The translations under genes were made by a program, and so were the position numbers. The notes beneath the pieces are model-generated. The model did no database searches. It saw nothing but the letters and a program-made list of their open reading frames with translations, and had not been told where the DNA came from. A DNA stretch of 64,000 nucleotides from an uncultured Candidatus Saccharibacteria bacterium (lineage in GTDB: Bacteria; Patescibacteriota; Doudnabacteria; UBA920): contig CAZYMS010000001.1 of the NCBI GenBank assembly GCA_964648985.1, positions 1,215-65,214 of the forward strand, written 5' to 3'. Of the stretch, positions 49,501 through 64,000 are shown one piece after another. Each line of letters starts with the position of its first letter. Position 1 is the stretch's first letter.

Positions 49501-50550
49501 ATGATTCCTGTAATCCTCTGTGGTGGCGTTGGCACTAAAATGTGGCCAGAAAGCCGCCAAGATTCTCCCAAACAGTTCCTACCACTTTTTAATGGTAAAT
49601 CGCTTTTTCAGCTTAATTGGGAAGCACTGCGTTTAAAATTTGCACCAAAAGATATATATATTCAAACAAACGAACTACAGGCACAACTGGCCAGAGAGCA
49701 AGTAAGCGAAATAGTTGAAGAAAATATATTTCTTGAGCCAGAAATGCGGAACCAGGGACCTGCAAGCGGCCTTGCTGCGGCTATGCTATACAAACAGTTT
49801 CCCGATGAGCCGTTTATGATCGTTCAGGCAGATGTATTGCGCCTGCCTAGTAGTAAATTTATTGAAATGATAGAGGTGTGCGACAGACTCGCCAAAGAAA
49901 CTGGAAAATACATTACAGGGGGCATCGCGCCTACGTACGCTGTTATGGGAGTGGACTACTTAGTACCTGGTAAACGTGTATCGGAAGATGGTGAGGTAGG
50001 CGTATACAGCGTAAACAAATTTCTCTGGCGCGCCACAAAAGAAGAAACTAGCAAGTACATTCACGAAGGAGCACTTATCCATGCGAACCACACCTGTATG
50101 ACACCTCGGGCTTTTCTTGAAATGCTTAAAAAATACCGCGCTGACTGGTATGAACCACTCATGCACATGGTTCAAGGAAAAAATATAATCACCGAGTACA
50201 CTAAAATGCCTGCAGGACCCATAGAAGAAGTAACTCAAAAAGTTCACGCAGCGGGCGAGTCTCTAGTAGTACAACTCCCCTTTGATTGGATTGACTTTGG
50301 CACCTGGGAATCGCTCATGAACTTTGCCGCACCGCAAAAAACTACTGATGCCGCCCATATAGAAGAAATAGATTCTTCAAACAACTTCGTACGAGTACAA
50401 AACGGTAAGCAAGTTGCTCTGGTTGGTGTACAAGATTTAATAGTGGTAGATACCGAAGACGCTCTTCTAATTTGTCATAAAAACAAGTCTGGTAAAGTTG
50501 GAGAAATAGTTAATAGCCTAAAAAAACAAGGCAAAGAAAAGCTACTCTAG
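49501..50550 (+). CDS. Mannose-1-phosphate guanylyltransferase (nucleotidyltransferase domain only)
   Basis: N-terminal VILCGGVGTKMWPESRQDSPKQFLPL sugar-nucleotidyltransferase signature. Confidence 0.7.
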   Translation: MIPVILCGGVGTKMWPESRQDSPKQFLPLFNGKSLFQLNWEALRLKFAPKDIYIQTNELQAQLAREQVSEIVEENIFLEPEMRNQGPASGLAAAMLYKQFPDEPFMIVQADVLRLPSSKFIEMIEVCDRLAKETGKYITGGIAPTYAVMGVDYLVPGKRVSEDGEVGVYSVNKFLWRATKEETSKYIHEGALIHANHTCMTPRAFLEMLKKYRADWYEPLMHMVQGKNIITEYTKMPAGPIEEVTQKVHAAGESLVVQLPFDWIDFGTWESLMNFAAPQKTTDAAHIEEIDSSNNFVRVQNGKQVALVGVQDLIVVDTEDALLICHKNKSGKVGEIVNSLKKQGKEKLL

Positions 50551-50564
50551 TAGTAAATGAAGAT

Positions 50565-50600
50565 AATAAATACACCCCTCGTATGAGGGGTGTATTTATT
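50565..50600. terminator. 16-bp perfect palindromic hairpin (AATAAATACACCCCTC-GTAT-GAGGGGTGTATTTATT) between convergent genes
   Basis: Read directly. Overlaps the stop region of the YbaK-like gene. Confidence 0.6.
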
Positions 50601-51105
50601 TAGATACAGAAAAATTGAAAACTAAATCTGGTGTAACGATTTTAAAATAATCTTCAGATGAGAGACTTATGCTTGTATCTAATTTCGCGGCATTGAACGC
50701 AATACGGGGAAAATTTTTAAGCGACTCAGAAACGTATAATTTTTGCACTTTATCAAAAATTTGATTACCAAAGGGCGGCATACAACCTGGCACCACACCT
50801 GCAATATCGACAAGCTCTTCTTTGGTAGAAAAACGAAACTGTTTTAATTCAGGTAGTCCACTCTTTAATTTTACCTTATCTATAACATGCGTACCGGGCA
50901 AAACAAACACCACAAATTCACTTCCACTTTTAAAATCCACCTTGCACAGCAAAGCTTTCGCGCCCACAGCATCGGGCATACCAGCCTCTTTGCGAACACG
51001 CGCAGACTCTTCGCTCGTGCGACATTCGGGATGAGAATATACGAAGTATTCTATGCCGGCAACGATAAACAATTGCTGTATTTTTTGAAATGCAATTTCA
51101 TTCAT
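50596..51105 (-). CDS. YbaK/ProX-type aminoacyl-tRNA deacylase domain protein
   Basis: Size and central/C-terminal blocks resemble the YbaK family. Only moderate similarity by eye. Confidence 0.45.
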   Translation of the reverse strand: MNEIAFQKIQQLFIVAGIEYFVYSHPECRTSEESARVRKEAGMPDAVGAKALLCKVDFKSGSEFVVFVLPGTHVIDKVKLKSGLPELKQFRFSTKEELVDIAGVVPGCMPPFGNQIFDKVQKLYVSESLKNFPRIAFNAAKLDTSISLSSEDYFKIVTPDLVFNFSVSK

Positions 51106-51145
51106 ATAGTAGCGTGATATATAGGCCTTATACGGCTATATATCC

Positions 51146-52237
51146 CTATGCCTTATATTCTTCTTCCTGTGCGCTCGGGGTTAAAGTAACGTGCTGCGCT
51201 GCCATTTCAAGTGGGTGGGTGGTAGTAATAAAAGTTTGGAACTTTCCTTGCAGAAACTTAAGCAAGAAGGTACGACGCTGCTCGTCGAGTTCAGACAACA
51301 CATCATCAAGGAGCAGCACAGGCTTGTCTTCTCCTTTACTTAGATACTCAAGCTCAAGAACTTTAAGAGAAAGAATCTGACTACGAAGCTCACCGCGCGA
51401 AGAAAACGGGGAAAGAAATAAGCCATCGCTCTTTAAATTAAAATCATCACGGTGCGGTCCAACAAGGCTCGTAGAAAGCATAATTTCTCGTTGCGTTTGG
51501 TCCGCGAGTAGCTTACGGAGCGCAGCCTCAACCTCTTCCATGGTAGACCCTGGAAGAGTTGCGTATTCTACTTCAACTGGACGGTGGAAACCTGAGATGT
51601 TGCTGTAGATATCGGCAAAGTGTTGATTCAGGAAACTGATAAAACGTTTCCTATGCATAATTATAGGGACACCCAATTTTACTATTTGCTCATTCCAAGC
51701 AATCAGATCGTCGTGAGAGGCTGCCCCACCTCGAATCTGCTGCAATACTCTATTTTTCTGACTTAGTACTTTTTTATAATTTGCAATATCTTCCAAATAC
51801 TGTACGTCTTTCTGTGAAAGGACCATGTTCAAATACCGGCGTCTGCTTTCCGGACTTGCTGTAAACAGGGCAACATCCTCAGGCTCAAAGATAACTACAT
51901 TCAAAAACCCTTGCACTTCTCGGCGGCGCTTTACGACTCCATCCAATTTAAAGTTAGCGTAAATTTTATCCCGCTGTTCTAAAAATATTTCAATAGTATG
52001 GTCCTGCCCTCTGCGCTCCACCACTACACGCACTTCAGCGGTAGTAGTATTCTTCATGAAAATAAACTCTGAATCATCACGAAATGACTTAAATAGGGAC
52101 GCGAAATAAACGGACTCGAGCAAATTAGTCTTACCAACTGCATTTGGCCCCGACAATACTACTAAATCACTCGTAATATCGAGCTGTAATTCTGGGTAAT
52201 TTCGAAAATTCTTGATGGATATCTGTTTAACTCTCAT
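51146..52237 (-). CDS. recF: DNA replication and repair protein RecF
   Basis: Walker A LSGPNAVGKTNLLE, the ABC-like signature region and a Walker B LLLDDVLSELD. Start at MRVKQISIKNF. Confidence 0.85.
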   Translation of the reverse strand: MRVKQISIKNFRNYPELQLDITSDLVVLSGPNAVGKTNLLESVYFASLFKSFRDDSEFIFMKNTTTAEVRVVVERRGQDHTIEIFLEQRDKIYANFKLDGVVKRRREVQGFLNVVIFEPEDVALFTASPESRRRYLNMVLSQKDVQYLEDIANYKKVLSQKNRVLQQIRGGAASHDDLIAWNEQIVKLGVPIIMHRKRFISFLNQHFADIYSNISGFHRPVEVEYATLPGSTMEEVEAALRKLLADQTQREIMLSTSLVGPHRDDFNLKSDGLFLSPFSSRGELRSQILSLKVLELEYLSKGEDKPVLLLDDVLSELDEQRRTFLLKFLQGKFQTFITTTHPLEMAAQHVTLTPSAQEEEYKA

Positions 52238-52345
52238 ATTGTAAATATATAGCATGTCCGAAACAACGAATATACCCGAACCCACGAATATCAACGAATT
52301 GAATTCGTAGTTATTCGTGGATTCGCCCATTCGTAGATTCGGATA

Positions 52346-53452
52346 TTATGTTTTAATGGGCATTACAAGATATATATAATTTTTATCCTCTGGGCTTTGC
52401 AATATTACGGGCGTGGTTGGATTGTTTAGCTTAATATGCACGCTCTGAGAAGTCAAAAACTGAAGCATATCGAGAAGATACTTATGATTAAACAAAATAG
52501 TATCTTCTCCCCCAGTTACTTCAGCTGCAACCTCTACAGTACCCTCTCCTGCATCTTGAGAACGGGCCGAAAGCGTCAACCCACCCCCCGGGCTATACAC
52601 AACGGATATACCGCTTGCACTCTTAGCAAACACAGAAACAGCCTTAAGTGCTGAAATTAATTCAGTACGAGAAGCTGTGATTGAAACTGTGAATTCTTTG
52701 GGGATAATTGCTTCATACTCTGGGTAGCGGGCATCCACCAAACGGGTTGTAATTATAGTTTCATTAACTGAAAAAACTGCTTGATTATCACCAATATTAA
52801 CCTTAAACTCACCGTTTGAATTATGCAAAAGACGGAGCACCTCGCTCGCAGCCCTGGCGGGGATAATAATACTGAAATTGGGGAAAACTTCAGCACCAAC
52901 CTTAAGCACCACCTTACTTTCAGCAAGCCTGTACCTGTCAGTGCCTGCAAGTACAATTTCGTTCTGACCTGAGCGGGTCATAAATACTCCACACAGCTCA
53001 ATTTGCGTTTCATTTGTCGACACCGCAAATAGAACGCCCTCTAACGCATGGAAAAAGTCCTGAGAAGGTAGGGAAATGGCATTCTCGCTTACTGTATCGT
53101 TAATGACTGGAAAATCTTCCGCAGGGACCGTTTTAAGCACTGTACGGTACTTCCCTACTGAGAGTCTTAGACCTTCTGTAACTGTTTCCAATGTAACGGG
53201 CTCTCCTGGAAGATTATTTACCACTTCAACCAAAAGTCGTGCTGGCAGGCATACAACACCATCTTCTTCAACTTTGCAGCGAACAAACTGAGATATCCCT
53301 ATTTCTAGATTTGTAGCACTTATTTTTAACAGACCATTCTGTGTTTGAAGCAGTACATTTCCTAGTACGGCCAAAGTACTACTAGCAGCCACTGCCCTAC
53401 TACAGACGGCAAGTGCATTTTTTAGATTTTCTTGCACCACAACAATTCTCAT
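52346..53452 (-). CDS. dnaN: DNA polymerase III beta sliding clamp
   Basis: Three-domain beta-clamp collinearity (N-terminal ...LAVLGNVLLQ...). Position between dnaA and recF. Confidence 0.85.
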   Translation of the reverse strand: MRIVVVQENLKNALAVCSRAVAASSTLAVLGNVLLQTQNGLLKISATNLEIGISQFVRCKVEEDGVVCLPARLLVEVVNNLPGEPVTLETVTEGLRLSVGKYRTVLKTVPAEDFPVINDTVSENAISLPSQDFFHALEGVLFAVSTNETQIELCGVFMTRSGQNEIVLAGTDRYRLAESKVVLKVGAEVFPNFSIIIPARAASEVLRLLHNSNGEFKVNIGDNQAVFSVNETIITTRLVDARYPEYEAIIPKEFTVSITASRTELISALKAVSVFAKSASGISVVYSPGGGLTLSARSQDAGEGTVEVAAEVTGGEDTILFNHKYLLDMLQFLTSQSVHIKLNNPTTPVILQSPEDKNYIYLVMPIKT

Positions 53453-53503
53453 AGATTATTATTAAATAAATATATAAATAAATTAGTAATAGTAATAAGG
53501 GCG

Positions 53504-53697
53504 GTGGATATGTGGACAAACCGGAATAGAATCAAGAATTATGAATTAAGAATTAAGCGAAAACATATTTTTTATCGACAATGAGTTCGAACAACTTGTG
53601 TATAGTCCGTGTGAGTAAATGGGGAAAAGTGCGGACTTTGTCTTTGGGGCATGAGTTATCAACCACCTATTAGGGGTTTGTACTGTGCTTTTCCACA
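53504..53697. promoter_or_regulatory. Cluster of DnaA-box-like 9-mers in the dnaA-dnaN intergenic region
   Basis: tgtggacaa and gtggatat (overlapping, 53504-53519), ttatcgaca (53572-53580), ttttccaca (53689-53697). Each is one mismatch or fewer from TTATCCACA. Confidence 0.45.
53529..53560. repeat. Degenerate heptamer array (GAATAGA/ATCAAGA/ATTATGA/ATTAAGA/ATTAAGC) upstream of dnaN
   Basis: Read directly. The reverse complement matches the TTAATTCTTAATTCAT motif at 19609. Confidence 0.55.
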
Positions 53698-53731
53698 AGA
53701 TATTTCTTATGCTTGATTCATGATTCTAGTC

Positions 53732-55093
53732 TTATGTCGTATAAAGTTTATCCAAGATAAGGTCTACTTCTTGTTTGAATGATTCTTTTTCCGTAAGCAT
53801 GTTTTGGATTTTTTCTACTGCATGCATTACGGTCGTATGATCTCTCCCCCCAAAGAACTCTCCTATACTGGGAAATGAGCTGGAAAGCTCTTGTCTGGCA
53901 AGAAACATAGCTATTTGTCGCGGTTTTACGAATTCTTGTCTGCGAGACTGTTTTATGAGGTCTTCACCGGTTACGTTATAGAATTCAGCCACTAAGGAAA
54001 CTATCTTTTTTACCGTAACGCCTTTTTTCTTATTATTCATCATGCCCTGAAGCATGCTTTGAGCTTGTTCAAGACTTACAATGCGGTTTTCCATGTCTTG
54101 AAATACCAACAGCCTGTTAAGTGCTCCTTCAAGCTCACGTACATTGCTTTGGATATTTTCGGCAATATAATAGACTATTTCTTCCGGTAGGTTGGTTCCA
54201 CGTTTTAAAAGTTTGGTTCGGAGAATTGCCATGCGGGTTTCTAGGTCCGGAGCTTGGATATCTGCGACCATCCCCCACTCAAAACGGCTTACGAGCCTTG
54301 CCTCAATTGCTGGTATTTCCTTTGGCAGGCGGTCTGCAGTAATTATTATCTGCTTACCTTTATCCCTGAGTTCATTAAAGGTATGAAAGAATTCTTCTTG
54401 CGTTCCCTCTTTTCCCGCAATAAACTGGATATCGTCTATAAGAAGCATGTCTACGGTGCGGTAATGCTGCTTAAAATCATCCATTTTTTTGGTGGAGATT
54501 GCATTTATGTAGTCGTTGGTGAATTTTTCACTCGTCAAATATAAGACTTTTGCCCGTGGATTTTCTGAAATAAGCTTGTTGGCAACTGCATGCATAAGGT
54601 GAGTTTTGCCAAGACCTACTCCCCCGTAGATGAATAATGGGTTGTATTGGGTCCCTGGGTTCTTGGCAACTGCAAGGCTTGCGGCGTGCGCAAGTTCGTT
54701 GTTTTTGCCTATGATGAATGTGTCAAAAACGTACTTAGGGTTAATGTTCGATTGAGCAGTATTTGTAACTTGGGTCGGATATGCTGGAGCTGTTTGGAGG
54801 GGGTCGCTTGGTTGCAGATTTTGAGTAGGTGTGGGTGAGGTTTTCACAATTGTTCCTACTTGGTACTTGATAGTTTTTATTTCCGGAGCAATACCTTTTA
54901 GTGCTTTAAGCATTTCAGTATTGTATTTGCTCGCTATCCAGTCGCGATGGTATGTGGAAGGGACTGCAACAGTAATATTATCGTCAGTTTTTTCAATAAT
55001 ATGGGTATTTTTAAGCCAAGTATTAAAATTTGCTTTAGATAGTGATACTTCTAGATGGCCCAAAATTGCTTGCCAGATCTGTTGGTTGTTCAT
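53732..55093 (-). CDS. dnaA: Chromosomal replication initiator protein DnaA
   Basis: AAA+ Walker A GGVGLGKTHLMHAV, sensor blocks, C-terminal DNA-binding domain ...FGGRDHTTVMHA. Confidence 0.95.
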   Translation of the reverse strand: MNNQQIWQAILGHLEVSLSKANFNTWLKNTHIIEKTDDNITVAVPSTYHRDWIASKYNTEMLKALKGIAPEIKTIKYQVGTIVKTSPTPTQNLQPSDPLQTAPAYPTQVTNTAQSNINPKYVFDTFIIGKNNELAHAASLAVAKNPGTQYNPLFIYGGVGLGKTHLMHAVANKLISENPRAKVLYLTSEKFTNDYINAISTKKMDDFKQHYRTVDMLLIDDIQFIAGKEGTQEEFFHTFNELRDKGKQIIITADRLPKEIPAIEARLVSRFEWGMVADIQAPDLETRMAILRTKLLKRGTNLPEEIVYYIAENIQSNVRELEGALNRLLVFQDMENRIVSLEQAQSMLQGMMNNKKKGVTVKKIVSLVAEFYNVTGEDLIKQSRRQEFVKPRQIAMFLARQELSSSFPSIGEFFGGRDHTTVMHAVEKIQNMLTEKESFKQEVDLILDKLYTT

Positions 55094-55443
55094 AAAAAAG
55101 AGTACATACGTAATTAAGGGTAATGAATTAAGTAAAAATACCTTTATTTATTACGTAATACTTACTTGCTTGATTCTGATTTACTTATCTTATCAAGGTA
55201 GTTATCAACATGCTAGCAGGCAATAATACTGCTTATATAAGCGGATTAGGTGTTTAACTGTTGATTGCCTGTGGATTACTTGTGATTTTTGTGGATATTG
55301 ATAGTGAATAATGGGTTAATGAGTTTAACCTGTTTGGTTATTTATAGGTATTTATATATAGATATAGTATGTTGATAGCAATGAGTATTATCAAATCCTA
55401 TAAAGCAATCTAATACATAATGAATTAACGATATATAGTCTAT
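55094..55443. promoter_or_regulatory. Candidate oriC segment upstream of dnaA: DnaA boxes plus AT-rich unwinding region
   Basis: ttatcaaca (55202-55210), tgtggatta (55270-55278) and tgtggatat (55290-55298), each one mismatch from the consensus, followed by a very AT-rich stretch at about 55300-55440. Confidence 0.45.
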
Positions 55444-55469
55444 AAAAACCCCTTATTTAAGGGGTTTTT
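55444..55469. terminator. Bidirectional terminator (A5, CCCCTTA-TT-TAAGGGG, T5) after the giant gene
   Basis: Hairpin flanked by A and T runs, 8 bp 3' of the giant ORF stop. Confidence 0.6.
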
Positions 55470-55476
55470 ATATCAA

Positions 55477-58400
55477 CTATTCAGTTACTATCTCGGGTTC
55501 CGGGTCAACTGCGGGGGTAGGTTCGGGGGCCGGTGTTTCACTTTCTGCGCCATCACCACCTTCCTCAGTGGTGGGGGATGGAGGGTCTGTTTGGTGTGTA
55601 TTTTCTGGTGGGGTATTGTTTTGTACTACTGGTGCCTGCTGAACGATTTGTGTTACTTGCTGGAAAGTGGACAAAAGCATGACCCGAATAGAGCCTGTAT
55701 TGTCGGGGGTGCTATCTAGAGAAATTCCAAATACTTGACCCTGGGCTTCCGATGGAAGCTTTGCAGCTTTTCCAGCAAAGGTTGATGCAGTAAGCTTGTC
55801 GCCTAGAGATACGCTCCCATTCACAAATACCTTTTTGTAGGTTCCTGTTATGACGATGCTTACATATTCACCTGGTTTAATAGTTGTTGGGTCGTCTGTA
55901 ATAGGGGAGTCAGGGCTTATATTAAAGTCTGAAAGGTTGCGGTCTGCTACGCCAACAATAATTGTGTTTGCACCTGCTACTGCTTTTGCAATGGTGAGAG
56001 TGGGTTGGTCACCCAGTATTGGTTCCTCTGTTGCGCCAGTAAGCATAAGTAAGTCCCCTTGGTGTATGGTTTCGTTGCTGGTATTCTTTGCCACTATTGC
56101 GGTAGAACCTAATATTCTACCAAGCACAGCAACGTCTTTCTTTACAACCAAGGTGCCCGTGAGTATGGCAGTGCCTTTGGTGTTTATGGTAAAGAGGGAA
56201 GTATCTGCATTGGTTATTTCCAGTACTATGCCACTTGCGAGGTTTGCATTAATATGAACGGTACCATCGTTTGCCACGAGGAAGTTGTCCATGCCGTCCT
56301 TTTGTAGCTGTAAGAGATTACCACTATCCTTTTGATTTATTATGAACGAAGTATCGTGGCCTTCAATTGTTCCGCCGCCAACTTCATTTATTACCTGTCC
56401 ATCTTGTTCTCCAACAGTAAAGGTAAATGATGGTTTGGAGACATTGCCTTTAGGGTCTTGAATAAGAGAGGTGTTGTTTAATTCTTTGGTTGCATTTACC
56501 AAAGCAGCAAGGATTGGGCGGTCCGATAGAGATAGATAACCTTGTGGGTCAGTATCTACTGCCTCAGGGATTGCTGTTTGGATATTCTGAGCGCTGAATC
56601 CAGCATTAAGGAAAGTTTGGTCTAGGCCTGATAGAGCGTTCCAGCGATAGAGGATCGGATCTATTGCCATTATTGACGAAAGGCCGCGGTCAAATGCTCC
56701 TTGTACATCTTTTAGTCGAATATCAGAAGAGCTGGTAAGGTTCCCCGATGCATCTGAGCTCACAGTACCAGTGCCGAAAGCGTGGATACGGAAACCACCT
56801 GCTCCGGAAATGGTTACACGTTGGTTTACGCCATTTGTGAAGAACGCTATGGGGGCGTTGGCTCCATTGTAGAAGTTAAGCGAATTGGCGCCTCCAAAAG
56901 TCGTTTCAGTTGAGCTACTGTAAATCATCTGTCCGCCATATGCATTTGAATCATTTCCCAAGGCGATACGTGCGCTCGCGGAAGATCCGGAATTGTTATT
57001 ATAGACTCTGAGAATGCTATAGGTATTTTGACTCTTTTGAATATCTACCGTGCTTAGCGAATCAGGGGCGGCCGTTCCTATTCCAACTCGACCATCGTTT
57101 TGGATTATCAGTCCCGGGCTGTTTGATGAGTCAATTACGCTTAGTAATGCCGGTAACTTATCTGGGGTGGTGTCATTAGCGTTGTTAGAGAAAGCAGTGT
57201 CAACCGTCAGTGAGGTATCGGACGCAATAGCAGTAACCGTCCTGGTTTCTCCGGTAACTGTGATGCGGTCGCCCACGGCCAATTCAGTAAGAAACGCAGT
57301 GCCGCTGCCAGTAACTGTAGTTGATGCAGCTGGGTCGATATCTCCGGTTAGCTCAGATGTGGCATTTGCTTTAATATTTGCGGATCCGATGAGCCGCAAG
57401 CCTGGTTGACTAGTCACGTTGGAGATTGTTGCAAAATTGGTGCTTACGTCGCTAAATCTATATCTTGCTCCTGTTGTTACTCCACCTGTGCTGAAATCGA
57501 ATCCGCTTACGTTGCTTGTGGCGATTGAACCGTAGGTGTCGTATGCTTCATTGAATGTTTTAATATGATACGGAGCATATCCCACATCGCTTAATGAGCG
57601 TATATACATACCAGTGGTGTAACCGCTTGCTGCAGCATCCCATCCGTCAAAGTTGAAAGTGAATGCGTTTGATGTTGCGCTTTCACCACCCCCGACTGAT
57701 TCGCGGCTGTTGACTACTAGGCCCATGCTAGCGTTCGTGTTGCCCCTTGAGCCGTTACGCACGTATATACCTGCGGTCGACTGTTTTTCCAGTTGTGCTC
57801 CCCAAGCATAGTAGGCAGTAGTACCGTTGTTGATTATGAATGTTACTGTGCCGGTTGAAGAACCGTTAAAGGCTTGGGTAACGGTAAAGCGTTGCCAGCT
57901 AGTAGTAACTGTCACCGTGTTGGCGGTACCGGTTTGGTTCCCGGAGTCTAGTCGTAAGTTTACCGTGCCGGAGCCGGATGACTTTTTGAGCCACACAGAA
58001 CCTGTCCAGGTGGTGCTGGTAGAAGAAGTAGAGAGCCAGTCTGCTTGTTTTACGTTATCGGTAGAGCTTCCACCTGCGCCAATTGTGTCCGCAGTTGTGT
58101 AGCCGTCCGGTCCTGTGGTGCTGTTGGCGGTTATGCTGACACCTGTTTTGGTCCACGCGGCATTGTCTAATTCTTCCGTGTATTTTATACGATTTTCGCT
58201 TCTGCCAAATCCACCCTGTGGCGAGTACATATATCCAGAGTCCAAAAGCAGGTCTGATCCATCCCCTAAGTTTAATCTTTCAGATGGGGTTGTTTTTGCG
58301 ACACCTATATTACCGCCGGCAAATATTGCTGCGTAGTTCGTATCTCCGGAAGTTGGTTCTTCCACGTAGAGTCCAATCTTGGTGGTTGTGCCTGTGCTGT

Positions 58401-61400
58401 GGGTGTTTGAGTTGGCTATGTAAGCACCATAAGAGTTAAGTGTGCCTCCTGTAGTGAGCCTTCCGTTGGCTTGCGCGAATATACCATAAGAATTTACTGT
58501 TGCGCCGGTAGTGGAATCACTCGAAGTTGGTAAGAAATATCCGCCGTATATATTGGTTGTTCCACCGTTGCTGGCACCCGTGCTGCTGCTAGGGGCAGAG
58601 TAAATACCGTATATGTCCCTAGTATTTGCGGATATGGCACCTGTTGCGTTGGCTGAGAAATATCCGCCATAGAGGGCATATGAATTGCTGGTAGAGTCAG
58701 ATGTGACGTTGGAATACAATCCATAACCAGTTTTGCCTCCGTTTCCTGTCATAGTTAGATTGCTTTGCAAGTTGTAATTTGTTTTATTCGTAGCCGTGCT
58801 GTCGGTTCCGTCAATTTTTATGCCGTATCCGGTGCTAGTACTGCCGGAATAGTCTGGTGCAAAGTAGGCGAGTACGCCGGCAGTACTACCACTTCCTACA
58901 TCCGAAACGACTTTCATAAAACCAGAAGATGTCCCTGTGATAACCCCGGTGGACGTCGGACCAGTAAGTGAAAGGGCGGACCCGGTTGTTAGAGAAGTCA
59001 TGGATATTGCCTGACCAATGCCCACCGTTGAAGAGTTTGCCGCTAAGTTGATAAACGTGGCCGCACCTGTGGTGGAAGTAGAGCTAAGGTTAATAAGGCT
59101 GCCGGTGAATCCGGTGGTGGTTCCGGTCTGGGCAATGTCAATGTATTTAGCCGAGGTTTGGCTTGCGCCGTTGGCTGCGATAGACATCATGGTGCCGGAT
59201 GTAAGGCTGTTGCTGTTGAAGGCAAGGAGTCCGGTCCCCGTGTAAGCGCCACCATTTGCGCTAATGTTCAGTGCGGTACCGGTAGATGCTGTGCCCATCA
59301 CTAATCCCATAAGTTGGCCACCTGCCATAGATCCACCACCAGTGACCTGAATACCGGTACCGCTGGTAATGCCGGTGGTTGATATATTTAAGGCTGTGCC
59401 TGTAAAGCTGGCTGTATTATTTGTAAGGTTTACTAAGGTGCCCGCAGTAGAAGCGGACGAGGTGACATTGAGCAACCCTCCGGTAGAGGTGTATGCTCCG
59501 CTGTGGCTGATTTGTACTAAACCATTTGCGATAGCCGAAGTTCCCGAAGCAGACACTTTCAAAGCGGCGCCGCTTGTAATACCTGAGCCAGCAGCTATGT
59601 TTGTAATTGTACCGGTTGTTATGCCGGTGCCAGACACGCTTTGTACAACACCGCCTGTGGTTGCGTTGCCTGTGACGTTGAGTAGGCCGCCGCTGCCAGT
59701 GTATGCCCCACTTGCCGTGAGTTGTACTATACCGTTTGTTACTGCGCCAGTGGTGGCGGAAGTAACTTTTAAGGCTGAGCCGGATGTAAGGCCGGTAGCA
59801 GAAGAGGTGATAGAGAGGTTGTCTGTTGTGGTGGTAGCACCCCAGTCTAATGTTTGGGTAGTAGTGCCCATGTTTATGGCGCCATTGCCGCTGGGGTCGC
59901 CAATAGCGTCAAATGCCGTTGCCGCACCCGCGCAGCCTGTACAAGAAGTAACCGTTAAGGCGCCACCACTGGTAAGTTTTGCGACACTTGTATTTGCGAC
60001 TTGGAAGTCGAAAAAGTTACCCGTAAAGCTTGCAGGATTGGCCCCGATGTATGTTCCGTTGGTCGAGCCGCTGGAAAGAGCTGTGTTTGAAAGATTGAAT
60101 AATGCATGCGTTGCAGAGGCGTTTATAGCCGTACTAATAGAAAGGGGGTCTACCGGGGTGCCCGTGCCAATGCCAAGCCCTGTCGAGTTCCAAATTCCCG
60201 TGGTTGAGTTGTTAACGCTGAAGGTAATGTTGCCACCGCTTGATCCAGAAACACCAGCTCTTAATAGAAGGTTGCTTGCGCCGCTGTCTCCATTGTTTCC
60301 AACTGAGACAGTTGCCGCTGGTTGGTACCAATAGCCAGAAGTGGCACTAAAATTGGTAATGCCTTGACCGATTGTAGAAATACCACCGGCCTCATTTAGG
60401 CTAAATGCAGTTGTTCCATTAAGTTTTACATCTATTATTCTTCCGTTAAACCCGCTTGGTGCGTTTATACCAAGACCTGTGCCGCTTGTGGACCACCCGG
60501 TAGACGTCGCTCCGCTTGCTTCGACTAAGAGTTGGGGTTTGGTGGTGGTTGAGTCACCACCAGTGAACCACGAGCCACTTAATTTGGCTCCTGGGTTGGA
60601 TGCTGCACCGTTCGATCCAATGTGTAAGAAAGCGGTAGGGGAGGTGGTCCCTATTCCAACATTGCCACCAGTAAATACTGCTCCATAATTGTTGGTTGCG
60701 CCGGTTGGAGCATCAATATATAGCCCATATCCGTTGGTTACGGCGCCTGAACCAGTAGTAAGGTCTGCCGTGCCAATTCTGAGCCCTACCGCATTGGTAA
60801 TGGCTACGCCAGTAGAACCGGCTGCTATGGGAGCAGAAGAAATAGTTACGCTGTTTGCGTTAGTAATCGCGACTTGTGTTGCGTCATTGTCTTGTATGGT
60901 AGGCGCGTTAAATAAGAAGCTGTCCATTGCAGTAGTAACAGCAGTAGAGCCAGTAAGCGTAATAGTAGGGGAGGTAAAGGTCCCCGTCGTATACTCTGCG
61001 CTTGTCGCGCTTGCGACGGTTTGGGCTGGGGCGACGACATGTAAAGCGGAGCTGGGGTTAGTGATGCCAATGCCGATTTCTCCCGCAAAATAGCTGTCAG
61101 AAGTTGAGGAGCTGTATATGCTGTAATTTCCAGTAGCGGGTACACTAGAACCTAAAACCAGGTTAATGTAGTCTGAGGCACTCGTAGAAGCATACGCGTG
61201 CAAACCTACATTGAGCACCCCGCCACCTGCTACAGTAGCCTGGAATTGACCTGCTATATTTGTATACGCATTGTTTGCTATTGCGTACAGACCTATGTTC
61301 GTATTGTCAGTCCCGCTAGTGCTGTTGGCAAAGTACCCAGTATAGGTAGTTTGGTTGTTAGCACTCGTGCCAGCAGAAGAAACATTTAATGCCTTTTGAG

Positions 61401-64000
61401 TGTTAGACGCAGCGCCAGTACCTGTAACTGCGATAGTAGCCAGAGATCCCGAGGTTAGCGAAGAGCTGGCCAAGGAAAGGGCGGTACCCGTAGTCAGAGA
61501 GTTTGCTACATAAGATAATCCTGTTGTAGTGGTGCCCGTAAAGTTTTGGGTCCAGGTATTAGCTCCTTGGTTAAGAACAAGAGCCGCATCCAGGTCCATG
61601 GTATCTTCAAAGTCTGTGTAGTCTAGGGTGTCGTCATCTACTTCACCTCCAGAAATTGTAGTACCCAGTACTGTCTGTAAATCGCCGCTTGAGAGTTGCA
61701 ATCCGGTGCCTACAAACTCATCTATTGCGTCACTGCCAATAGTAATGGTTTGAGCTGCAGCTATGGTGATGCCTGCATCAAAGGTTGTGGCGTTGGTTAT
61801 ATTTCCGCCAGACACAGTAAGGTCTCCTGCAAACGTACCGTTGCCGGATGAATCTATAGTGAGTTTATCGCTTGTTCCAAGCGCTGAACCAGAAATCTTA
61901 AATTTGTCGCTATCGGAATTGTCGATTCCTATAGTAAACGTGTTTGTGCCATCTGCGAGTTCAAAGCCGATTTGCGGATCGCCCGTGCTTGTGTTTCCGA
62001 TACTTATTTGAATAGGGCTGGAAGAGGAGCCTAATACTTCTAGTTTTTGATCCGGTGTAACATCGCCAATACCGACATTGCCATTCGTATCAATGCTTAA
62101 GAACGGATTGGTCCCGGGTGTGGTGCCGTCGCCAATTTGAAAGGTGTCATCATCATCGCCCCCTGCGTCATCTTGTACTCCCATCCAAAAATCAGTATCA
62201 GTAGCGGTGGTTGCGTTGAGTACCAGGCTCGGATCTGCTTTTGTGATGGTTTGGTTTGCGCTAAATACATTGGCCTGGTTTAAGTAGGCGACATTGTTCA
62301 ATGTTCCCGCTGTGTTAATGTTCGTCCCACTAAGCAAATAGTTGGCTGCGTCAAATGAGGTGTAGCCACTATCATCACCGAGCCTTGCTTGCAGTGTCGC
62401 GCTGCTCCGTTTAAGGGCAGGGAAGGAGGTTGTTGCTCCACCAAAAATAAGTAAGTTAAATGCGTTTGTGGCGCTATTTTGCAATAATAAATTAGAGTCA
62501 GCAGGAGAGCTTATAACACTGCGACCGTTAAATCCAATATACCTACTTGCTGCGGCGTATATGTCGTTTCCGCCGAATATAGTACTGGCGGTTGTTACCG
62601 TACCATCACTTTGTACAGAGAGTTTGCTAACGCCGCCGGTCTGCAAATCTAACAAATATTTGCCTGCGCTCCCGGTCGCTGTTTCAGTGGCGTTTACTAG
62701 AAGGGCGGTATATCCCCCAGCTCCGCTTTGGTTAATGACTGGTGCTATGCGTGCAAAAGTTTGAGCTGCCGTGCCAGTCAGTTCGCCAGTCGCTCCGGCA
62801 CTATTTACATCGAATGCCACAGGTGTAGAGGTGTTGTTAGAATCTGCTGCTTGTTGTACATGGAGTTGGGAAGTCGGCGCATTTATACCAACGCCAACAT
62901 TGCCTCCAAAGTAATTATTTCCCGCAGCGGCGTATAAGGCGTAGTTTGCTGCCCCATTGGTGGCAGATAGGTCTAACGCTATGTTTATACCACTTCCACT
63001 TTTGCTATTGCTAACAGATGCGCCATAGGTAAGATTCCCGTTTGAATTTCCAGAGTTTGAGACATTTAGTACTTGTTGCGTAGATCCTGAAGTGTTATCG
63101 GAAGTCGAACTAAATGTAATTACTGCCCCTGAAGTTACAGTACTGCTTGTCGCGTATAGGCCCGAGCCGCTTCCGCTCCCACTTGTAACTGAGCTAGAAA
63201 TAATAACCGATCCAGTGCCATTGGGGGCGATAAGCAGTGCTTCGTTTGTGCCGGTAGTAATATCTGTGGTAACGCCATTGAATTTCAGTCCGCCAGAAGA
63301 ATCTATTTGGAATAAATCTCCAGAGCCCACTGTTAGTAAGGCTGCTGGTGTGGTGTCGCCAATACCGATGTTTGTGCCATTTGTGAATAATACTGTTTGA
63401 TCATCTATGGTTGTGCCTGTTGATGGGTAATATCCAAAATAACCAGCAACACCACTGGCCACGGTTCCGGCGCCACATGCACCCCAGGAAGGAGCTGCGC
63501 TCGTATTGCCTGTTAAACATTGTCCTGTAGTACCTGCTGCGGTTACCTGAACAGCGCTCGTGCCATTGCCGTAGAGTACGCCATTTGTAGTGAATGTATT
63601 CGCACCCGTACCACCTTGTGCAACAGTCACCAGGGCATTATCCGTTAAGATGGTTGCTGAAGCGTTTGGTAAGGTAAATGTTTTGGTAGAAGTGGTAGGG
63701 CCAGTGAATGCAGTAAAGCCATTACCCGTACCACCATTGGCAGCTCCGAGAATGCCTGATACTTCAGCGGTAGCTAAATCTACTGCGGTCGAAGTAGAAC
63801 CACTACCCGTAAATAAGGAGGCGGTTAAAGTATCTGATACATATGCATCAGTCAGGGCAGTGCCGTTCCAAGTGCCTGTGGTAATTACTCCAGTGTTGGC
63901 GGTAACAACTAAACCATTGTAGGAAGCAGCTCCTGTGACAGCACCAGTCAGGGTAAGGGTGGTAAACGACCCACCAGCAGTACAAGCAAACGCACCAGTA
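55477..64000 (-). CDS. Giant (>2,840 aa) Thr/Gly/Ser/Ala/Asn-rich fibre-like surface protein with internal S74 intramolecular-chaperone domain and Pro-rich C-terminus; 5'-partial (continues past window end)
   Basis: The minus-strand frame stays open, with no stop, from 63630 to base 64000. I translated it by hand: ...TILTDNALV(GTG-start)TVAQGG. A CBM/LamG-like jelly-roll segment is present. An S74 block SSSDIRLKDVQGAF...ILYRWN...FSAQNIQTAIPEAV lies at about 56510-56740. The C-terminus is PAPEPTPAVDPEPE. Confidence 0.8.
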   Translation of the reverse strand, partial: TGAFACTAGGSFTTLTLTGAVTGAASYNGLVVTANTGVITTGTWNGTALTDAYVSDTLTASLFTGSGSTSTAVDLATAEVSGILGAANGGTGNGFTAFTGPTTSTKTFTLPNASATILTDNALVTVAQGGTGANTFTTNGVLYGNGTSAVQVTAAGTTGQCLTGNTSAAPSWGACGAGTVASGVAGYFGYYPSTGTTIDDQTVLFTNGTNIGIGDTTPAALLTVGSGDLFQIDSSGGLKFNGVTTDITTGTNEALLIAPNGTGSVIISSSVTSGSGSGSGLYATSSTVTSGAVITFSSTSDNTSGSTQQVLNVSNSGNSNGNLTYGASVSNSKSGSGINIALDLSATNGAANYALYAAAGNNYFGGNVGVGINAPTSQLHVQQAADSNNTSTPVAFDVNSAGATGELTGTAAQTFARIAPVINQSGAGGYTALLVNATETATGSAGKYLLDLQTGGVSKLSVQSDGTVTTASTIFGGNDIYAAASRYIGFNGRSVISSPADSNLLLQNSATNAFNLLIFGGATTSFPALKRSSATLQARLGDDSGYTSFDAANYLLSGTNINTAGTLNNVAYLNQANVFSANQTITKADPSLVLNATTATDTDFWMGVQDDAGGDDDDTFQIGDGTTPGTNPFLSIDTNGNVGIGDVTPDQKLEVLGSSSSPIQISIGNTSTGDPQIGFELADGTNTFTIGIDNSDSDKFKISGSALGTSDKLTIDSSGNGTFAGDLTVSGGNITNATTFDAGITIAAAQTITIGSDAIDEFVGTGLQLSSGDLQTVLGTTISGGEVDDDTLDYTDFEDTMDLDAALVLNQGANTWTQNFTGTTTTGLSYVANSLTTGTALSLASSSLTSGSLATIAVTGTGAASNTQKALNVSSAGTSANNQTTYTGYFANSTSGTDNTNIGLYAIANNAYTNIAGQFQATVAGGGVLNVGLHAYASTSASDYINLVLGSSVPATGNYSIYSSSTSDSYFAGEIGIGITNPSSALHVVAPAQTVASATSAEYTTGTFTSPTITLTGSTAVTTAMDSFLFNAPTIQDNDATQVAITNANSVTISSAPIAAGSTGVAITNAVGLRIGTADLTTGSGAVTNGYGLYIDAPTGATNNYGAVFTGGNVGIGTTSPTAFLHIGSNGAASNPGAKLSGSWFTGGDSTTTKPQLLVEASGATSTGWSTSGTGLGINAPSGFNGRIIDVKLNGTTAFSLNEAGGISTIGQGITNFSATSGYWYQPAATVSVGNNGDSGASNLLLRAGVSGSSGGNITFSVNNSTTGIWNSTGLGIGTGTPVDPLSISTAINASATHALFNLSNTALSSGSTNGTYIGANPASFTGNFFDFQVANTSVAKLTSGGALTVTSCTGCAGAATAFDAIGDPSGNGAINMGTTTQTLDWGATTTTDNLSITSSATGLTSGSALKVTSATTGAVTNGIVQLTASGAYTGSGGLLNVTGNATTGGVVQSVSGTGITTGTITNIAAGSGITSGAALKVSASGTSAIANGLVQISHSGAYTSTGGLLNVTSSASTAGTLVNLTNNTASFTGTALNISTTGITSGTGIQVTGGGSMAGGQLMGLVMGTASTGTALNISANGGAYTGTGLLAFNSNSLTSGTMMSIAANGASQTSAKYIDIAQTGTTTGFTGSLINLSSTSTTGAATFINLAANSSTVGIGQAISMTSLTTGSALSLTGPTSTGVITGTSSGFMKVVSDVGSGSTAGVLAYFAPDYSGSTSTGYGIKIDGTDSTATNKTNYNLQSNLTMTGNGGKTGYGLYSNVTSDSTSNSYALYGGYFSANATGAISANTRDIYGIYSAPSSSTGASNGGTTNIYGGYFLPTSSDSTTGATVNSYGIFAQANGRLTTGGTLNSYGAYIANSNTHSTGTTTKIGLYVEEPTSGDTNYAAIFAGGNIGVAKTTPSERLNLGDGSDLLLDSGYMYSPQGGFGRSENRIKYTEELDNAAWTKTGVSITANSTTGPDGYTTADTIGAGGSSTDNVKQADWLSTSSTSTTWTGSVWLKKSSGSGTVNLRLDSGNQTGTANTVTVTTSWQRFTVTQAFNGSSTGTVTFIINNGTTAYYAWGAQLEKQSTAGIYVRNGSRGNTNASMGLVVNSRESVGGGESATSNAFTFNFDGWDAAASGYTTGMYIRSLSDVGYAPYHIKTFNEAYDTYGSIATSNVSGFDFSTGGVTTGARYRFSDVSTNFATISNVTSQPGLRLIGSANIKANATSELTGDIDPAASTTVTGSGTAFLTELAVGDRITVTGETRTVTAIASDTSLTVDTAFSNNANDTTPDKLPALLSVIDSSNSPGLIIQNDGRVGIGTAAPDSLSTVDIQKSQNTYSILRVYNNNSGSSASARIALGNDSNAYGGQMIYSSSTETTFGGANSLNFYNGANAPIAFFTNGVNQRVTISGAGGFRIHAFGTGTVSSDASGNLTSSSDIRLKDVQGAFDRGLSSIMAIDPILYRWNALSGLDQTFLNAGFSAQNIQTAIPEAVDTDPQGYLSLSDRPILAALVNATKELNNTSLIQDPKGNVSKPSFTFTVGEQDGQVINEVGGGTIEGHDTSFIINQKDSGNLLQLQKDGMDNFLVANDGTVHINANLASGIVLEITNADTSLFTINTKGTAILTGTLVVKKDVAVLGRILGSTAIVAKNTSNETIHQGDLLMLTGATEEPILGDQPTLTIAKAVAGANTIIVGVADRNLSDFNISPDSPITDDPTTIKPGEYVSIVITGTYKKVFVNGSVSLGDKLTASTFAGKAAKLPSEAQGQVFGISLDSTPDNTGSIRVMLLSTFQQVTQIVQQAPVVQNNTPPENTHQTDPPSPTTEEGGDGAESETPAPEPTPAVDPEPEIVTE

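Follow-up and report, generated by a model that had tools for sequence, protein, structure and literature searches.

The window, i.e., the 64,000-nucleotide stretch of DNA analyzed here, originates from a Saccharibacteria (CPR) genome and harbors a giant fiber-protein gene, which is located directly upstream of dnaA, dnaN and recF (Table 1). Other neighbor genes are ruvB, tsaE, polA and rpoBC, and the sign of the GC skew flips near 54 kb. Counted over the whole window, DnaA boxes are not more frequent than expected by chance (21 vs an expected 17); a local clustering of these boxes near dnaA is suggestive. The arrangement on the dnaA side is kept in two related genomes, L004 (GCA_964612745.1) and L006 (a Ca. 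Saccharibacteria MAG). Adjacency to dnaA was also considered as a general trait of proteins that carry the C-terminal cassette described below, which was rejected because distant metagenome relatives are found without it. A scan of a genome collection with the single giant protein returned only one related locus. The giant gene is a chromosomal, cellular gene.

Table 1. Positions of the features in the window
Feature	Position	Strand	Basis or remark
dnaA, followed by dnaN and recF	53732..55093 (dnaA)	-	Pfam
Giant fiber-protein gene	55477..64000	-	Stop codon 55477-55479; frame open to window end
Acidic Pro/Thr/Glu-rich C-terminal tail	55480..55662	-	ORF aa 2657-2717
Domain B', beta-tulip	55663..56112	-	ORF aa 2507-2656; AF2 pLDDT above 90
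Linker and beta-rich domain A, ...SFTFTVGEQDGQ...FIINQKDSGNLLQLQKDGMDNF...	56113..56466	-	ORF aa 2389-2506
S74 intramolecular chaperone / auto-processing domain	56467..56727	-	ORF aa 2302-2388; Pfam core 56557-56727
C-terminal helix of the S74 domain, RPILAALVNATKELNN	Domain end	-	AF2 helix, model residues 87-102
Lys2307 codon, predicted general base of the Ser-Lys dyad	56710..56712	-	Codon checked; alignment
Ser2302 codon, predicted nucleophile	56725..56727	-	Codon checked; alignment to solved S74 domains
Pre-cleavage strand region, ...FGTGTVSSDASGNLTSS	56728..56844	-	ORF aa 2263-2301; common to phage tail fibers with S74

Residue numbers refer to the minus-strand open reading frame (ORF) 55477-63630, which carries the S74 segment and whose numbering runs to residue 2717. 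The GTG at 63630 was ruled out as the true start because the frame is still open up to the end of the window; the N-terminus of the giant protein is therefore found outside the window. Extension by a Logan contig gives a length of at least 2958 residues, and the orthologues comprise 3529-3683 residues (P0070, 3529; P0069, 3683). The residues T, G, S, A and N make up 58% of the giant protein, seven copies of the motif GxVGIGxxxPxxxL are spread along the chain, and a search of the whole protein against NCBIfam gave no match. Because its own N-terminus is located outside the window, we infer secretion from the orthologue P0069, which displays a signal-peptide-like N-terminus (MAKQNLK...LFASQAQA) and a conserved N-terminal region. 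By analogy with phage fibers and the Bdellovibrio MAT fibers, the protein most likely serves as a fiber for the cell surface or for attachment and would be held at its conserved N-terminal end.

A first-pass annotation of the DNA had recognized the S74/CIMCD hallmark of phage-fiber chaperones at positions 56510-56740. A plus-strand reading of this segment was rejected because the translation is full of stops, which places the feature on the minus strand, where ...SSSDIRLKDVQGAFDRGLSSIMAIDPILYRWN...GFSAQNIQTAIPEAV...YLSLSDRPILAALV is found at ORF residues 2300-2378. From the end of this segment to the stop codon there are 339 residues, in agreement with the "about 330" of that annotation. The hallmark is real: residues 2302-2358 score 28.6 bits with Pfam PF13884 (Peptidase_S74), compared to a gathering cutoff of 22 (E = 1.8e-6), the match spanning positions 1-57 of the 58-position model, and a profile of 26 homologues matched solved S74 domains in the PDB, i.e., the tail fiber 8jov (1.3e-11), the long tail fiber 6f45 (4.6e-7) and the MyRF ICA 7dc3 (1.8e-6). 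These matches came with the homologue profile; a direct phmmer search of the PDB with the C-terminal 457 residues gave nothing significant. The match in PHROGs is a long tail fiber distal subunit, and Foldseek matched the structural model of the domain to the MyRF ICA 7dc3. The AF2 monomer is of only moderate confidence in this part (pLDDT 70-85).

The Ser/Lys dyad expected of such a domain is present as well (Ser2302/Lys2307), with a predicted scissile bond Ser2301|Ser2302. In endoNF the dyad is S911/K916 in the arrangement S-D-x-x-x-K; in MyRF it is S587/K592, and the structure 7dc3 carries the S587A mutation (PMC8326128). In the alignment, S2302-D-I-R-L-K2307 occupies exactly the columns of SDERLK in 8jov and SDRRIK in 6f45, and its Ser and Lys those of S587A and K592 in 7dc3. 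Both dyad residues are invariant in the 26 homologues, and the domain has the full set of 11 clade-invariant residues. A point against the explanation favored below is that Ile takes the place of the Glu found in the common S-D-E-R-L-K motif, although P0014, P0021 and P0022 also have this Ile.

The distance from the Ser to the end of the terminal helix, for which AF2 predicts 16 residues, is 87 residues, compared to 87-97 in the shortest complete terminal S74 proteins. The domain is complete including its C-terminal helix, which would form the trimeric coiled coil. We also considered that a shortened S74 helix might be compensated for by domain B', but this idea was rejected because several complete terminal S74 domains have equally short helices. 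Judged from its sequence, the segment is a genuine S74 intramolecular-chaperone domain with an intact Ser/Lys dyad.

The S74 module is a phage-fiber module in a cellular gene and is related to those of phages; the first-pass annotation had suggested that it may be a domesticated phage-fiber module. Using blastp, ORF residues 2263-2385 were covered by phage fiber proteins of the contigs L008, L012, L014 and L016 at 47-55% identity; these contigs are bona fide phage in that major head genes and tail genes are encoded on them as well, and the matching modules are terminal S74 modules of metagenomic phage tail fibers. The homology includes the approximately 40 residues that precede the Ser and ends exactly at the C-terminus of the phage proteins, and identity to IMG/VR viral contigs reaches 64%. 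The four phage fiber proteins comprise 594-1042 residues, i.e., the giant protein is several times larger. The classical phage architecture, in which S74 resides at the extreme C-terminus of a fiber or spike, does not apply here: 416 residues separate Ser2302 from the stop codon, of which 329 lie beyond the S74 helix. In 61 of the 62 viral homologues the corresponding distance is 87-133 residues, whereas more than 200 residues follow the Ser in 21 of the 54 closest cellular (CPR) homologues, with Ig-like domains among these downstream parts. The view that additional protein behind S74 is unusual thus holds when compared to phages, but not when compared to the CPR homologues or to the precedent of MYRF. 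Domains found behind S74 in close homologues include Bact_surface_Ig-like, Big_3 and weak H_lectin matches, while in the close terminal homologues P0017, P0031, P0038 and P0050 a hydrophobic helix and a basic tail follow straight after the S74 helix. This difference between a terminal position in phages and an often internal one in CPR suggests that cells have elaborated on the phage mechanism.

The region behind S74 had been described as a further domain of about 330 residues with a Pro-rich tail. The tail is real, but the remainder is not a single domain; instead, it forms a conserved cassette with the tail, in which domain A is beta-rich and domain B' is a beta-tulip, and the tail itself is acidic. 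Searches of the downstream 331 residues with Pfam and PHROGs gave nothing significant. Domain A, which has no Pfam match and is poorly modeled (low to mixed confidence in the AF2 monomer), was found in an exhaustive HMMER search always behind an auto-processing chaperone module, and it is repeated in some proteins. For B', Foldseek matches in the PDB were phi29 gp8.5 (6e-5) and the decoration proteins of HFTV1, Pam3 and TW1, as well as the C-terminus of phi29 gp12 (3gqh; E 0.087, prob 0.89); in BFVD it matched a "Preneck appendage protein (barrel)" at 1e-7. An hhalign comparison of B' with the G2-like family gave a probability of 99.4% (E 2e-21), and that family aligns in turn to phi29 gp12 with a probability of 81%. 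The catalytic Asp/Glu positions of G2 hold Ile and Lys in B' (hhalign alignment), and PF11962 gave no match in the C-terminal 331 residues even at E values up to 10. B' is homologous to the phi29 gp12/Peptidase_G2 auto-chaperone "barrel" but non-catalytic. The beta-tulip fold trimerizes in phage decoration proteins.

About 12 of the last 51 residues are Pro, and the tails of the orthologues are of similar composition but different sequence. Neither LPXTG or another known anchor motif nor a transmembrane helix was found in the last 416 residues, where the maximum Kyte-Doolittle 19-residue mean is 1.51 with the peak inside the beta-tulip domain. The cassette is absent from the phage collections INPHARED and IMG/VR. 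When only the cassette was used as the query, a word-indexed search for homologues retrieved no more than 2 proteins, and the exhaustive HMMER search found more. At about 75%, the conservation of the cassette exceeds that of the S74 module and the tip. Such conservation, as well as the Ig- and lectin-like domains behind S74 in homologues, is odd for material that is merely discarded and speaks against the explanation favored below.

In the dnaA-adjacent orthologues the slot that precedes this ~75%-identical cassette is occupied by the S74 domain described here, by a second S74 subtype or by a G2 module. The second subtype, found in L006 (P0070), is only 33% identical to this S74, while L004 (GCA_964612745.1) harbors a phi29-gp12-type G2 module that retains the catalytic D-Y-A-E motif. 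In 29 further cluster representatives a DxAExY motif is located 139-212 residues upstream of domain A, and DxAE modules precede domain A at four metagenome loci as well; the G2-like module of the relative P0094 passes PF11962 (27.5 bits compared to a cutoff of 25). The phi29 cleavage motif, read from EU771092, is SDFAEYF, where D-x-x-E corresponds to D692/E695, and the G2-like modules align to gp12 exactly at this S691|D692-F-A-E695 motif. That two unrelated self-cleaving chaperones, each with its catalytic residues, occupy one and the same slot argues for autoprocessing as the function under selection. A search of the literature that combined S74 or G2 with CPR or Patescibacteria found no matching work.

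Several known systems resemble parts of this architecture. Phage S74 fibers (the K1F endosialidase CIMCD, T5 pb1, the S16-type long tail fiber 6f45, and 8jov) belong to the same Pfam family and share with the giant protein the S-D-x-R-x-K dyad, the G-F-x-A-Q...P-E-A-V core and the terminal helix, but in these fibers the domain is terminal, whereas here it is internal in a cellular protein that is encoded on the chromosome and comprises about 3000 residues or more. The mosaic adhesive trimeric (MAT) fibers of Bdellovibrio bacteriovorus, which attaches to other bacteria, carry a signal peptide and modular tips that are swapped between paralogues, and autocleavage of the MAT fiber Bd3182, which has an S74 domain with SDxxxK, was shown experimentally (PMC10769870). 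The likeness to this S74 subgroup is that of a cellular, signal-peptide-bearing mosaic fiber with S74 and SDxxxK, the signal peptide being here that of the orthologue. In contrast, MAT fibers are about 1000 residues long and end in S74, while the giant protein is approximately three times longer and has a conserved cassette behind S74; the two organisms are also unrelated. In MYRF, an internal S74/ICA domain with a long C-terminal region behind it cleaves only as a trimer (PMC3742443, PMC8326128). Here the likeness consists of the internal S74 domain and the further C-terminal region, along with the sequence-profile and fold matches to 7dc3; however, the downstream part of MYRF is a transmembrane anchor with a lumenal domain, whereas the giant protein lacks a transmembrane helix, which some bacterial homologues possess. 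Finally, B' has the same fold as the phi29 gp12 auto-chaperone (Peptidase_G2, PF11962, 3gqh) and the decoration proteins phi29 gp8.5, TW1 gp56 and lambda gpD. It differs in its Ile/Lys residues, its failure to match PF11962, its position behind S74 rather than directly behind the fiber, and the lack of a capsid context.

Taken together, these data are best explained by a model, to which we assign a moderate probability, where the S74 segment would be a functional intramolecular chaperone and auto-processing domain in a secreted Saccharibacteria fiber. Its most likely function would be to chaperone trimerization and then to sever the last 416 residues of the chain. We infer the following sequence of events. 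Three chains would meet at their C-terminal ends, where the S74 domains, probably aided by B', would trimerize and act as a template on which the upstream fiber tip folds from C to N. After trimerization, the Ser2302/Lys2307 dyad would cut the Ser2301|Ser2302 bond, such that the 416-residue C-terminal fragment (S74, A, B' and the acidic Pro-rich tail) would detach and a new fiber tip be exposed. The released cassette may have a role of its own, and the fiber would act in attachment.

In an alternative model, which we consider unlikely, S74 would trimerize the chains without cutting, or cut but stay bound. It would then be an internal trimerization node, and the mature fiber would in fact end distally in A-B', e.g., in a binding or capping domain. 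Such an arrangement is consistent with the typical surface and binding domains (Bact_surface_Ig-like, Big_3, weak H_lectin) downstream of close S74 homologues, with the well-conserved cassette and with the absence of G2 catalytic residues in B', as a result of which B' would remain attached at the very end. However, the Ser, the Lys and all clade-invariant residues are kept here, and the module that fills the slot instead in relatives still has a catalytic motif, D-x-A-E, of its own. We know of no non-cleaving S74 domain with an intact dyad. Furthermore, the cassette is constant while the unit of tip and S74 varies; if the cassette were a receptor-binding end, one would expect the reverse.

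A release switch as in MYRF would also account for the internal position of S74: the cassette would tether nascent chains at the envelope until a trimerization-gated S74 cut releases the fiber or frees its tip. The acidic Pro-rich tail is similar to the segments with which surface proteins of Gram-positive bacteria span the wall. The hydrophobic helix and basic tail at the end of P0017, P0031, P0038 and P0050 correspond to the MYRF topology (PMC3742443, PMC8326128). We nevertheless judge this possibility to be distinctly unlikely for the giant protein, given that its last 416 residues lack a transmembrane segment as well as LPXTG and any other known anchor motif, that binding of A or B' to envelope components would have to be assumed and that the tail sequence is not conserved among orthologues. 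That the gene is a prophage or recently transferred phage tail-fiber gene, or the motif a chance match, is highly improbable despite the identity of up to 64% to IMG/VR contigs and the PHROG tail-fiber match, considering the neighbors dnaA, dnaN, recF, ruvB, tsaE, polA and rpoBC, the same gene position in two other genomes, the size (at least 2958 residues, with a signal-peptide-like start in an orthologue, vs 594-1042 for the phage fibers), a cassette not found in INPHARED or IMG/VR, and a Pfam score above the curated cutoff.

Saccharibacteria and other CPR live attached to host bacteria, and their attachment machinery beyond type IV pili is poorly known. A giant mosaic, phage-fiber-like surface protein that is conserved beside the replication origin, and whose unit of tip and chaperone is swapped between close relatives, is a concrete candidate for such machinery. 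With the favored model of chaperoning and cleavage, the function of the released C-terminal piece itself becomes directly testable. A broader, speculative reading, to which we assign a low probability, is that CPR have turned the interchangeable phage auto-chaperones S74 and G2 from terminal, disposable aids into internal, trimerization-gated break points, where the cassette would hold the giant fiber at the envelope or cap its tip, and cleavage would arm or release the fiber. In this broader reading the cassette is here composed of A, a dead G2 beta-tulip and the tail, and in other homologues of a transmembrane helix. If true, this process would be a bacterial counterpart of MYRF signaling in the contact between episymbiont and host. 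The interchange of S74 and G2 before one constant cassette is, in addition, a natural experiment, which marks exact module boundaries that are usable for fiber engineering.

The Peptidase_S74-like domain that the first-pass annotation proposed is present in the giant gene, i.e., the ORF that encodes a probably secreted fibre-like protein. The peptide placed at 56510-56740 is found there, but on the minus strand; translation of these coordinates on the plus strand yields stops. The motif spans residues 2300-2378 and leaves 339 residues up to the stop, in agreement with the proposed ~330 aa. In a Pfam search with the whole protein the sole match was PF13884, Peptidase_S74, at residues 2302-2358 (model 1-57 of 58; score 28.6 bits, gathering threshold 22; E = 1.8e-6), which confirms the assignment, and PHROGs matched residues 2295-2384 as "long tail fiber protein distal subunit". 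In an alignment of 26 close homologues (40-59% identical), the S, D, R and K of S-D-x-R-x-K and seven other positions are invariant, and none of these residues is missing from the window protein. The profile of these homologues matched the solved structures of a tail fibre (8jov, 1.3e-11), a long tail fibre distal subunit (6f45, 4.6e-7) and the ICA domain of the eukaryotic protein MyRF (7dc3, 1.8e-6), where the Ser and Lys columns coincide with SDERLK, SDRRIK and the MyRF S587A/K592 positions. Experiments on MyRF showed both S587 and K592 to be indispensable; their equivalents in endoNF are S911/K916 (PMC8326128). The predicted dyad, Ser2302 and Lys2307, is thus present and aligned with those of solved S74 domains. 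A predicted helix, RPILAALVNATKELNN, closes the domain (AF2, model residues 87-102); the 87 residues from Ser2302 to the helix end equal the length of the shortest complete terminal S74 proteins, and the module is therefore full-length.

The ORF is cut by the window edge, with the reading frame open as far as base 64000. On a Logan contig with an identical dnaA, the protein reaches at least 2958 aa, and orthologues are 3529 and 3683 aa long; one of these homologous proteins, P0069, begins with a signal-peptide-like MAKQNLKTILNFRKRTKLYALLALVGVALNWIPLFASQAQA|TVP, behind which the N-terminal region is conserved. T/G/S/A/N make up 58% of the giant protein, seven copies of GxVGIGxxxPxxxL are spread along it, and conserved and replaced blocks alternate as a mosaic between it and its orthologues (blastp). 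A mid-protein stretch resembles a carbohydrate-binding/jelly-roll module and has no match in Pfam, NCBIfam or PHROG. The G+C content is 0.47-0.51 across the giant gene (56001-64000) compared to 0.40-0.41 just downstream (50001-56000), and also reaches 0.48 in parts of the window; the raised value probably reflects the Gly/Ala/Thr/Ser-rich composition rather than a foreign origin.

Features of the giant gene and its surroundings (window coordinates)
Feature	Position	Strand	Remarks
Giant ORF	55477-63630	minus	2717 aa as listed
Ser2302 codon	56725-56727	minus	
Lys2307 codon	56710-56712	minus	
Domain A			FIINQKGSGNLLQLQ...; start of cassette
Domain B'			usually C-terminal domain of its protein; GD..-..GV.D-..G.Y..V-..GD.LT.S...G.A.K...G.V.G..L
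Jelly-roll-like stretch	~57740-58190	minus	ORF aa ~1815-1965; ...AAWTKTGVSITANSTTGPDGYTTADT...YYAWGAQLEKQ
DnaA-box-like 9-mers	55202-55298		giant-gene stop to dnaA
DnaA-box-like 9-mers	53511-53697		dnaA-dnaN
Surface-related protein	25696-28386	minus	896 aa; F5/8 type C and PKD-like domains
Surface-related protein	20009-22447	minus	812 aa; weak GH43 match
PilB-type type IV pilus ATPase	42635-44284	minus	

Behind S74 lies a cassette that ends in an acidic Pro-rich tail. An exhaustive HMMER search gave 229 cluster representatives that match residues 2387-2665 and split this region into two domains, A and B'. In an AF2 model built from a 34-row alignment, pLDDT was >90 for B' and 70-85 for S74, while the linker and early A were poor. 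Foldseek groups B' with beta-tulip capsid decoration/cement proteins, the best being phi29 gp8.5 (E 6e-5), followed by capsid-associated chains of HFTV1, Pam3 and T1 (down to E 2e-3), TW1 (E 1.2e-2) and, more weakly, lambda gpD; it also matched the C-terminal auto-chaperone of phi29 gp12 (3gqh, prob 0.89) and a BFVD "Preneck appendage protein (barrel)" (1e-7). The cassette was not found in the phage collections. In the homologues P0085, P0005 and P0004, what follows domain A or S74 is not B' but a region that weakly matches H-type lectins (PF09458; E 1.6e-3 for P0085).

Matches in deposited phage genomes are confined to the S74 part and lie in tail-fibre genes, at 33-38% identity. IMG/VR yielded 191 stretches that code for relatives, the identity reaching 64%, and three of the best loci (L008, L012, L016) are on genuine phage contigs, where the fibre gene has major head and tail genes as neighbours. 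Their fibre proteins are 47-55% identical to ORF residues 2263-2385, a match that starts ~40 residues before the Ser and stops at the S74 helix end. Of the 62 viral homologues in which the distance from Ser to stop could be measured, 61 fall at 87-133 aa and one at 191 aa, whereas 21 of 54 protein-database homologues have more than 200 aa there. Many of the long-tailed homologues sit on long cellular contigs, some named Candidatus Paceibacterota, and the regions after S74 include Bact_surface_Ig-like and Big_3 domains. The earlier view that further protein behind S74 is unusual therefore holds relative to phages, where S74 is terminal, but not for cellular CPR proteins, where internal S74 is common. 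S74 domains in cellular bacterial fibres were already known, such CPR proteins being labelled "tail fiber domain-containing" by NCBI, as were internal ICA domains, for which MYRF is the precedent. One homologue (P0009, 662 aa) carries two separate Peptidase_S74 stretches, then an Ig-like domain.

On balance we favor a model in which the module acts as in phage fibres and the Bdellovibrio MAT fibres, i.e., cellular fibres with an S74 module (PMC10769870): it would nucleate and check trimer formation of the upstream fibre and then cut before Ser2302, freeing a 416-residue fragment. Because its fold trimerises in decoration proteins and gp12, B' may serve as an extra trimerisation clamp that departs together with S74. 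That the cassette instead remains on the fibre as its distal end seems unlikely. Slightly less likely still is a release switch of the MYRF type, with the cassette as envelope tether: several homologues (P0017, P0031, P0038, P0050) have a hydrophobic helix and basic tail right behind the S74 helix (e.g., ...LFGLIAVLLVAIVWTRKK), an "S74 then membrane anchor" topology like that of MYRF, in bacteria, but the C-terminal part of the window protein contains no transmembrane or anchor motif. Prophage origin and a chance match are both effectively excluded.

The window is an ordinary bacterial chromosome (rpoB, rpoC, polA, clpB-like, pilB, tsaE, ruvB, P-type ATPase), and its RpoB shares a 90%-identity cluster with a protein from an uncultured Candidatus Saccharibacteria bacterium (contig CAZBAS010000001.1). 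On the strand of the giant gene, dnaA, dnaN and recF follow directly behind it. Two relatives, a Saccharibacteria MAG (L006; protein P0070) and GCA_964612745.1 (L004), likewise have a giant gene immediately before dnaA-dnaN-recF. The GC skew switches sign near 54 kb, by dnaA, and DnaA-box-like 9-mers (one mismatch) cluster around dnaA; the giant gene thus probably abuts oriC. Over the whole window, such 9-mers are not above chance (21 found, 17 expected).

The syntenic orthologues differ in the slot directly before the cassette. The cleavage motif of phi29 gp12 (EU771092) is S691|D692-F-A-E695-Y-F, and 29 cluster representatives have a gp12-type D-x-A-E-x-Y/F 139-212 residues before domain A; it also occurs in the L004 orthologue (as CADYAEIY) and in four more distant metagenome loci. 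Aligned as a profile, these modules fall on gp12 exactly at 689-745, cleavage motif included. With hhalign the match to gp12 has prob 81%, and the P0094 module is above the Pfam cut-off for PF11962, Peptidase_G2. The L004 orthologue is split into two overlapping ORF calls (2103 and 411 aa; L004 3712-11236) that break inside the G2-like domain and together fit its consensus, which suggests a frameshift due to an assembly error or a pseudogene. B' is itself related to the G2-like family (hhalign, prob 99.4%, E 2e-21), with Ile and Lys at the G2 Asp and Glu positions in the window protein. A, B' and the Pro-rich tail are ~75% identical between the window protein and P0069/P0070 and ~50% identical to the L004 product, but they are preceded by the S74 described here (SSSDIRLK), by an S74 of a second subtype (CTSDRRLK; identity to the first only 33%) or by a catalytic G2 module. 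The three syntenic orthologues thus bear one cassette behind three different modules.

Since S74 stands directly before A in only four orthologues (P0068-P0071) among 150 representatives with cassette domains, the G2-cassette arrangement looks ancestral, and S74 looks like a replacement that arrived with its preceding tip segment. In P0089, a G2-type DxAE module occupies the slot directly before A, and S74 lies ~300 residues further towards the N-terminus. In the literature searched we found no description of a dead-G2 beta-tulip cassette behind S74, of an exchange of S74 and G2 in one slot of the syntenic giant genes beside oriC in Saccharibacteria, or of numbers that set the terminal S74 of viruses against the internal S74 of cells. 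That two unrelated autoproteolytic chaperones, each with its own catalytic residues kept, share one slot is the strongest comparative argument for autoprocessing as the property under selection.
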